DNA of 64,000 nucleotides from NCBI RefSeq assembly GCF_988243305.1, contig NZ_OZ547136.1, one strand, 5' to 3'. Both the position numbers and the translations under genes were made by a program. Each line of letters begins with the position of its first letter. Position 1 is the stretch's first letter. The notes below the pieces were generated by a model. That model was not told the origin of the DNA and searched no databases. It was given only the letters and a program-made list of their open reading frames with translations. Of this stretch, positions 185 through 382 are shown one piece after another.

Positions 185-382
185 ATGGTGATACGCAAAA
201 AGAAGTGCAGGGACTGTGGAAACGCGATTACTCATAATACATGTTGCCCGTATTGTGGTTCTGTCGACCCCTTCGGCTATTACCGGAATACAGACCGTAT
301 CGTTACCATACTGCTGGCACTGATTATTGTGGTCCTGCTGACTACTGTCAGCGTCAGTGTGTATATACTGTGTAGCTGGTGA
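185..382 (+). CDS. hypothetical small membrane-anchored zinc-ribbon protein (65 aa)
   Basis: GGAGG Shine-Dalgarno about 7 nt upstream of the start; N-terminal CxxC...CCxxC motif followed by one hydrophobic helix (ILLALIIVVLLTTVSVSVYIL); no family recognised. Confidence 0.4.
   Translation: MVIRKKKCRDCGNAITHNTCCPYCGSVDPFGYYRNTDRIVTILLALIIVVLLTTVSVSVYILCSW

Follow-up and report, generated by a model that had tools for sequence, protein, structure and literature searches.

A 65-codon gene for a predicted membrane-anchored zinc-ribbon protein in the core module of CP4-44/CP4-57-type islands of Escherichia coli

The 65-codon open reading frame (ORF) at positions 185–382 of a 64,000-nucleotide stretch of DNA, referred to here as the window, raises the question of whether so short a frame in a genomic island is a gene and, if so, what its product might do. 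The preliminary description of this DNA had read the frame as possibly encoding a small membrane protein with a zinc ribbon, preceded by a strong ribosome-binding site, and had remarked that small genes of this kind often escape annotation; at the same time, it had allowed that the frame could equally be a chance ORF. The length of the frame is by itself unremarkable, as ten ORFs of at least 60 amino acids overlap the first 3 kb. Its 65 codons, on the plus strand, encode MVIRKKKCRDCGNAITHNTCCPYCGSVDPFGYYRNTDRIVTILLALIIVVLLTTVSVSVYILCSW. The gene did not escape annotation: in PGAP, the product is listed as the “hypothetical protein” WP_021561744.1.

CP4-44/CP4-57-type islands are among the commonest mobile elements of E. 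coli and carry Ag43, CbtA-type toxins, and other fitness factors. Bases 1–1700 of the window were 99.9% identical to the genome of E. coli JE86-ST02. In the annotated region of that strain, the window lies inside a CP4-44-type island located between cobU and tmaR-sbmC-dacD-sbcB-his. The left end of the island is situated beside cobU, approximately 7 kb to the left of the ORF and outside the window. The ORF had been described as lying at the far left of the island, where accessory cargo is expected; it appears so because the window begins inside the island. The 15 loci compared together with their neighboring genes revealed a constant arrangement, in which the small gene starts 175–202 nt (mostly about 199 nt) from the start codon of a YfjJ-like gene. 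This divergent neighbor, a 189-aa YagK/YfjJ-type gene (“inovirus Gp2,” with weak similarity to REP_ORF2-G2P), is located on the other strand, and its start codon is 14 nt to the left of the window. In most loci, it is followed by two Zn_ribbon_11/DUF7828 genes. Kinship between the small protein and these two zinc-ribbon proteins was considered and rejected, as no meaningful similarity was found. Downstream of the small gene, most loci have a convergent hha/ymoA paralog; also located downstream are an alpA-like gene, a gene for a 200-aa protein of unknown function, and a YfjI/DUF3987 gene. The small gene is part of this conserved YfjJ/hha/alpA/YfjI core module and does not belong to the variable cargo. 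In an older annotation of the Shigella SRL island, nothing was placed between the YfjJ and Hha ORFs (PMC6980539). The features of the locus are collected in Table 1.

Table 1. Features of the small gene and its upstream region (positions in the window)
Feature	Position	Strand	Basis or remark
Right part of the conserved divergent intergenic region	1..117	-	Probable structured 5' leader of the YfjJ-like gene
Candidate weak sigma-70 promoter, TTGAAT (118-123), 17-nt spacer, TAATGT (141-146)	118..146	+	By eye
Shine-Dalgarno region GAGGAGGG and spacer	173..184	+	GGAGG at 175-179, read directly from the sequence
65-aa coding sequence	185..382	+	ATG 185, TGA 380-382; RefSeq WP_021561744.1
Zinc-ribbon-like motif, C8-x2-C11 and C20/C21-x2-C24	206..256	+	20-sequence alignment, pN/pS
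Conserved linker GSVDPFGYYRNTDR, residues 25-38	257..298	+	Ends in basic residues flanking the membrane segment
C-terminal hydrophobic tail, residues 39-65, predicted single transmembrane helix	299..379	+	Hydropathy, AlphaFold2

The signals for translation initiation supported the earlier impression of a strong ribosome-binding site. The GGAGG motif is located 5 nt ahead of ATG185 and 8 nt ahead of the adjoining in-frame GTG188. At the Shine-Dalgarno position, GGAGG was found for only 6 of the 223 ORFs of at least 60 aa in the whole window. The region was kept as GTGAGGAGG in eight of ten island copies and was purine-rich, GGAGAGGGAG, in the other two. In 2 of 11 distinct copies, ATC replaced ATG, and the start there would be the adjoining GTG. 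The candidate promoter matches the consensus at 7 of 12 positions and falls under the threshold of the promoter scan; its TTGAAT element was invariant, and TAATGT almost so, among ten diverged island copies. It may serve as the promoter of the small gene. Sequestration of the Shine-Dalgarno sequence in the leader was also considered and was rejected, since the plus-strand fold of the leader was not significant (z = -1.6).

The frame was analyzed in 11 distinct DNA copies from diverged islands, which are related and may recombine. The preliminary description had made the gene depend on conservation of its reading frame in homologous islands, and the frame was open in all 11 copies, with indels of 3, 3, and 6 nt only. 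The other five frames were all interrupted by stops: four of them in every one of the 11 copies, and the remaining one in at least 6. The pN/pS value of the whole ORF was 0.42 in the annotated frame and 0.97–1.83 in four other frames; the -1 frame gave 0.50 and contained stops in 11 of 11 copies. Within codons 1–40, pN/pS was 0.20 (pS 0.41, pN 0.08), the lowest of all frames; the antisense -1 frame had a value of 0.27 in this part but carried stops in all 11 copies. Variable sites in the same codons numbered 14, 11, and 29 at the first, second, and third positions, with the third position being the highest. Pairwise Fisher tests for codons 1–40 gave p values from 5e-5 to 4e-7, although these tests are not independent because the 11 sequences are related and possibly recombining. 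The low pN/pS at a pS of 0.41 indicates conservation at the protein level.

The tail behaved differently. From codon 41 to the end, pN/pS was about 0.9–1.0, which is neutral by that measure, and nucleotide divergence reached 36–49%. Nevertheless, random mutation at the observed divergence kept the uncharged hydrophobic character of the tail in no more than 0.14% of trials. The N-terminal domain is under purifying selection, and the tail is conserved in hydrophobic character. Alignment of the locus between island types was near perfect upstream, codon-patterned inside the ORF, and collapsed right after the stop codon. Two ORFs named earlier for comparison as lacking gene signals proved to be broken in homologous islands by stops and frame-breaking indels, the latter of 2, 14, 15, and 16 nt in ORF 958–1317 and of 1, 2, and 11 nt in ORF 1324–1569. 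Frame conservation, the pN/pS values, and the end of homology at the stop codon thus set the small ORF apart from a chance frame, and the suggestion that it could equally be one is rejected. Judged by these sequence comparisons, ORF 185–382 is a genuine gene that codes for a protein. Frameshifted or unannotated copies also exist (L005; H69, H70, and H73). These copies, together with the shifted C-terminus of a common allele (P0157, described below), suggest that the gene is dispensable in many strains.

The encoded protein consists of a cysteine-containing N-terminal part, a linker, and a hydrophobic tail. The cysteine codons are located at 206–208 (C8), 215–217 (C11), 242–247 (C20/C21), and 254–256 (C24). 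The window copy has two CxxC-type motifs (C8-x2-C11 and C21-x2-C24), as in a zinc ribbon, whose two knuckles are separated by a short hairpin. The spacing in this copy is CxxC-x8-CCxxC, while the common 66-aa form of the protein has CxxC-x9-CCxxC; relative to the latter, the window copy lacks one Val codon ahead of the CC pair. In an alignment of 20 sequences, C8, C20, C21, and C24 were invariant and C11 nearly so. A common allele, P0081, carries Tyr in place of the first Cys of the CC pair, which suggests that the CPYC pair supplies zinc ligands. The CxxC...CxxC motif suggests that the small protein may bind zinc. In the AlphaFold2 model, the zinc-ribbon part (residues 1–30) had a pLDDT of about 50–56 and contained two short beta bridges only. 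A LITAF-like membrane zinc ribbon (PF10601) was rejected as a candidate, since it needs a hydrophobic segment between the knuckles and here both knuckles (8–24) precede the segment at 39–62.

The linker was conserved as well: G31, Y32, Y33, and T36 were invariant in the 20-sequence alignment, and R34, D37, and R38 were nearly so. Overall, the alignment comprised a near-invariant MVIRKKKCRDCGNAITHNTVCCPYCGSVDPFGYYRNTDR followed by a variable tail. Residues 39–57 form the best 19-residue stretch (mean Kyte-Doolittle value 2.99), and residues 39–62 are uncharged and hydrophobic. All 11 tails had mean values of 2.7–3.05 and zero charged residues despite three very different tail sequences, and 0–3 residues lay beyond the helix in each of the 11 versions. 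AlphaFold2 predicted a helix at residues 34–64 with block-mean pLDDT values of 83–94, including 93–94 for residues 41–60 and 83 for residues 61–65. The N-terminus is polar and basic and has no signal peptide. As in a C-terminal anchor, a hydrophobic segment of at least 19 residues occupies the extreme C-terminus of a protein without an N-terminal signal peptide. The common allele P0157, present on at least 1000 contigs, has its last seven residues frameshifted and retains an intact helix. All the basic residues (R4, K5–7, R9, R34, and R38) are N-terminal of the helix, and none is C-terminal of it. This distribution of charges, together with the need of the thiols for the reducing cytoplasm, points to an N-in, C-out topology.

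Of 5426 complete E. coli genomes, 3505 contained the DNA at 120–440, each in as many as six copies, almost all of them chromosomal. E. coli copies numbered 6466, and intact alleles were present on thousands of contigs. Protein relatives were found in E. coli, Shigella, E. albertii, and E. marmotae, as well as in one Salmonella assembly and on one short Klebsiella contig; the gene is essentially confined to Escherichia/Shigella. A scan of 100,044 species-representative genomes recovered zero relatives, which fits a narrow, strain-variable distribution. A search of the CP4-57, CP4-6, and CP4-44 islands of K-12 found no copy, and small-protein data sets of K-12 are therefore of no help. Among mobile elements, IMG/VR contained two copies of the family and one match to the zinc ribbon only, GenBank phages contained one partial match, and the PLSDB plasmids gave eight records, some of which are probably chromosomal. 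The literature searched by peptide and accession contained no mention of the protein. The portions searched of the supplements to an EHEC Ribo-seq study and to an Enterobacteriaceae smORF census contained no match, a result that is uninformative rather than negative.

Searches for remote relatives remained below threshold in the domain collections. The best Pfam match was Zn_ribbon_3 (11.2 bits vs. a cut-off of 27), the best NCBIfam match was a rubrerythrin-like domain (14.2 vs. a cut-off of 32), PADLOC had no match to the small protein, and the best match among solved structures, a reverse-gyrase zinc finger, was sub-threshold (E = 0.07). In PHROGs, residues 4–58 weakly matched the first approximately 50 positions of profiles 136–178 positions long, belonging to three families annotated without function (38187, 10292, and 14275), which likewise begin with a zinc ribbon plus a transmembrane segment. 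A full HMM search of 1.84 billion representatives recovered the family itself and, at values weaker than about E = 1e-5, only small proteins of a generic kind that combine a zinc ribbon with a transmembrane helix. The remote full-length small-protein matches were marginal (E 1e-5 to 1e-3). Such matches may reflect a generic architecture, and we take them as a lead and not as evidence of homology. Two of these weak matches are located in conjugative type IV secretion clusters, on the opposite strand (L019:5001-5219 and L020:5001-5237). The former lies between TraG_N and TraH genes and the latter near a DotM-like gene; in both, a DPFG...DR linker joins a zinc ribbon to a transmembrane helix.

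Taken together, we propose, with a probability of about 0.6, that the gene encodes a 64–66-aa inner-membrane protein of CP4-44/CP4-57-type islands, with a C-terminal anchor and a cytoplasmic zinc ribbon as its working part. Approximately 38 N-terminal residues, comprising the Cys4 zinc ribbon and the GYYRNTDR linker, would lie in the cytoplasm, with almost nothing in the periplasm, and the gene would be transcribed divergently from the YfjJ-like (“inovirus Gp2/Rep-like”) gene. Since the soluble domain is nearly invariant and the tail keeps its hydrophobicity only, the single C-terminal helix is most likely a passive anchor, and the zinc ribbon and linker would provide the working surface. The zinc ribbon may keep a conserved cytoplasmic partner at the membrane. 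This candidate partner could be a protein or a nucleic acid and could come from the regulation/replication module of the island or from the host. The mode of action proposed here is read from the pattern of conservation. A more ambitious extension, to which we assign little probability, is that the protein is the founder of a family of membrane-tethered zinc-ribbon adaptors specific to CP4-type islands. Such an adaptor might hold the YfjJ-like Rep-like protein, island DNA, or a regulator (AlpA or the Hha paralog) at the inner membrane and so control excision/replication, or mediate cross-talk/exclusion among the sister islands, of which one cell has as many as six.

An invariant cytoplasmic zinc ribbon combined with a membrane anchor of freely varying sequence is an unusual split. 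About two thirds of complete E. coli genomes have the 65-aa gene, which is clearly under selection, belongs to a poorly understood core module, and offers a cheap and well-defined target for small-protein work. It does not represent a new kind of system and is already annotated in RefSeq, so that it would be of more than modest general importance only if it were shown to act in island control or exclusion.

Four other explanations were weighed against the anchored zinc-ribbon protein, and all of them are less consistent with the location of conservation. It is highly improbable that no protein is made and that the ORF is a chance frame overlying regulatory DNA that serves the YfjJ-like gene as promoter or leader. 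The strong conservation of the intergenic region 1–184, the probable structured leader on the other strand, and the ordinary length of the ORF would agree with it, but the concentration of substitutions at third positions, the excess of pS over pN (0.41 vs. 0.08), the restriction of indels to multiples of three, and the maintenance of both frame and hydrophobic tail through 36–49% tail divergence would not. It is also very unlikely that the gene is a decaying, now functionless N-terminal remnant of a longer protein with zinc-ribbon, transmembrane, and extracellular domains. Although the PHROG matches cover only the first approximately 50 positions of much longer profiles, some copies are frameshifted, and the C-terminus is variable, purifying selection on codons 1–40 persists at a pS of 0.41. 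In addition, the stop codon is at the same place in all three tail types, no homology to a longer protein follows it, and no longer relative was found among the 1.84 billion representatives, except for obvious read-through or fusion variants.

The other two explanations assign the protein an activity of its own at the inner membrane. The protein could be a small membrane toxin, resembling those of type I toxin-antitoxin systems or acting in abortive infection; its expression would harm the inner membrane and thereby stabilize the island or kill infected cells. Small size, a hydrophobic C-terminal helix, and carriage on a mobile element are features expected of such a toxin, and prophage-borne type I membrane toxins are a known class (PMC12648545). 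A good antisense promoter-like site (CTGACA-17-AATAAT, 351 to 323) was also found inside the window copy; however, this site falls within the part of the gene where the tails diverge, and tail types B and C do not have it. Moreover, the conservation is in the soluble domain and not in the helix, the tails have no charged or pore-lining residues, positions 1–2000 had no Rfam sRNA match, PADLOC gave no match, and up to six intact copies coexist in one genome, all of which make a toxin unlikely. The protein might instead be an exclusion or immunity factor of the island that blocks the entry, replication, or establishment of a related element or phage. The inner membrane is the typical site of exclusion proteins, the gene belongs to the core module beside a Rep-like gene, and co-resident islands have three types of tail sequence. 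The two weak matches within conjugative type IV secretion clusters point in the same direction, as do the weak PHROG matches, which are phage proteins whose N-terminal zinc ribbon precedes a hydrophobic segment. Still, the remote matches are marginal and of generic architecture, the predicted topology leaves nothing in the periplasm, the place of action of most exclusion proteins, and the gene hardly occurs in true phages and plasmids and had no match in PADLOC; we regard this role as unlikely, too.

The protein resembles several known systems in part. Generic small zinc-ribbon proteins (Zn_ribbon_3/Zn_Ribbon_1/DZR-type; PHROGs 38187, 10292, and 14275) share with it the N-terminal CxxC...CPxCG knuckles, a short basic linker, and one hydrophobic helix, and several of them are of similar size (55–80 aa). 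Unlike these generic domains, the window protein is below every Pfam and NCBIfam threshold, and its family is confined to Escherichia-type islands; the likeness may stem from a common architecture and not from common descent. Characterized small proteins of the enterobacterial inner membrane, tail-anchored proteins and small membrane regulators among them, belong to the same size class, have a single helix, and offer the idea of a membrane-bound modulator (PMC12648545). However, most of the known examples act via the helix or a portion in the periplasm; in the window protein, it is the predicted cytoplasmic domain that is conserved. Zinc does not come up in the text of that review, which was published in 2025 and covers small membrane proteins of bacteria (PMC12648545). 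Type I toxins (Hok, TisB, Ldr, Ibs, and the prophage-borne BsrG/TxpA) are likewise small, hydrophobic, and encoded on mobile elements, but no conserved antisense RNA was recognized for the window protein, the sequence of its helix is unconstrained, and it has a conserved zinc-ribbon domain that the toxins lack. Membership in the type I toxin-antitoxin class was rejected, since no conserved antitoxin RNA of a described kind was found: Rfam gave no match, and the antisense site at 351 to 323 was not conserved.

A further likeness is to RgdR (ECs1581), a small regulator of an E. coli O-island that was absent from the EDL933 annotation (PMC3378721). It too is a small protein of a P4/CP4-like island module that was overlooked early and has multiple diverged copies per genome. 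RgdR is described as a basic protein of 99 aa (63 aa in truncated forms) with RGD at residues 20–22, and zinc or membrane features are unmentioned (PMC3378721). A link to RgdR was rejected: the window protein lacks an RGD tripeptide and possesses a predicted membrane helix, so that motif and architecture, as described, set the two apart.

Several observations concern the DNA around the small gene. The intergenic region at 1–120, extending approximately 25 nt leftward (L001:5975-6120), was near invariant among island types, and the whole of 1–184 was strongly conserved. The minus-strand RNA of the intergenic region folded at -52.4 kcal/mol (z = -3.6), with the MFE structure equal to the centroid, and contained a perfect hairpin, CCGUAUG-AAC-CAUACGG, that overlaps the Shine-Dalgarno sequence of the YfjJ-like gene. 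The consensus structure held in eight copies, with two compensatory pairs only and hence weak covariation support. This modeled fold is probably a structured regulatory leader of the YfjJ-like gene. In the coding sequence of the O55:H7 copy (L003:4066-4260), codons 5–7 are AAA AAA AAG and form an in-frame A-AAA-AAG slippery heptamer, which is probably incidental; other copies have AAA AAG AAG.

On the other side of the small gene, the Hha/YmoA paralog is damaged in the window island (797–995, minus strand), where PGAP annotates a 49-aa product at 797–946. Its intact counterpart in another island (L008) has 70 aa and begins with MEVKTKEDWLYQF. In the window, the MEVKTK start is kept in a separate short ORF at 915–995, which indicates a frameshift in this paralog. 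Between the small gene and the hha paralog, a block of approximately 57 nt at 623–679 (ACACCATTCCCTTTTGATTTCGAATTCTTTGTTGTCGCTATACCGCTTAA...) was 81–93% conserved in all island types, and the DNA to its left, as far as the stop codon of the small gene, was largely unalignable between island types. The block had no match in Rfam; the convergent genes might share it as their 3' end or terminator region. Farther downstream, the DNA at 1324–1569 was 80–99% conserved, although its 81-codon ORF is not a gene. This segment is located upstream of the alpA-like gene (1705–1911), and its conservation suggests a promoter or leader for alpA.
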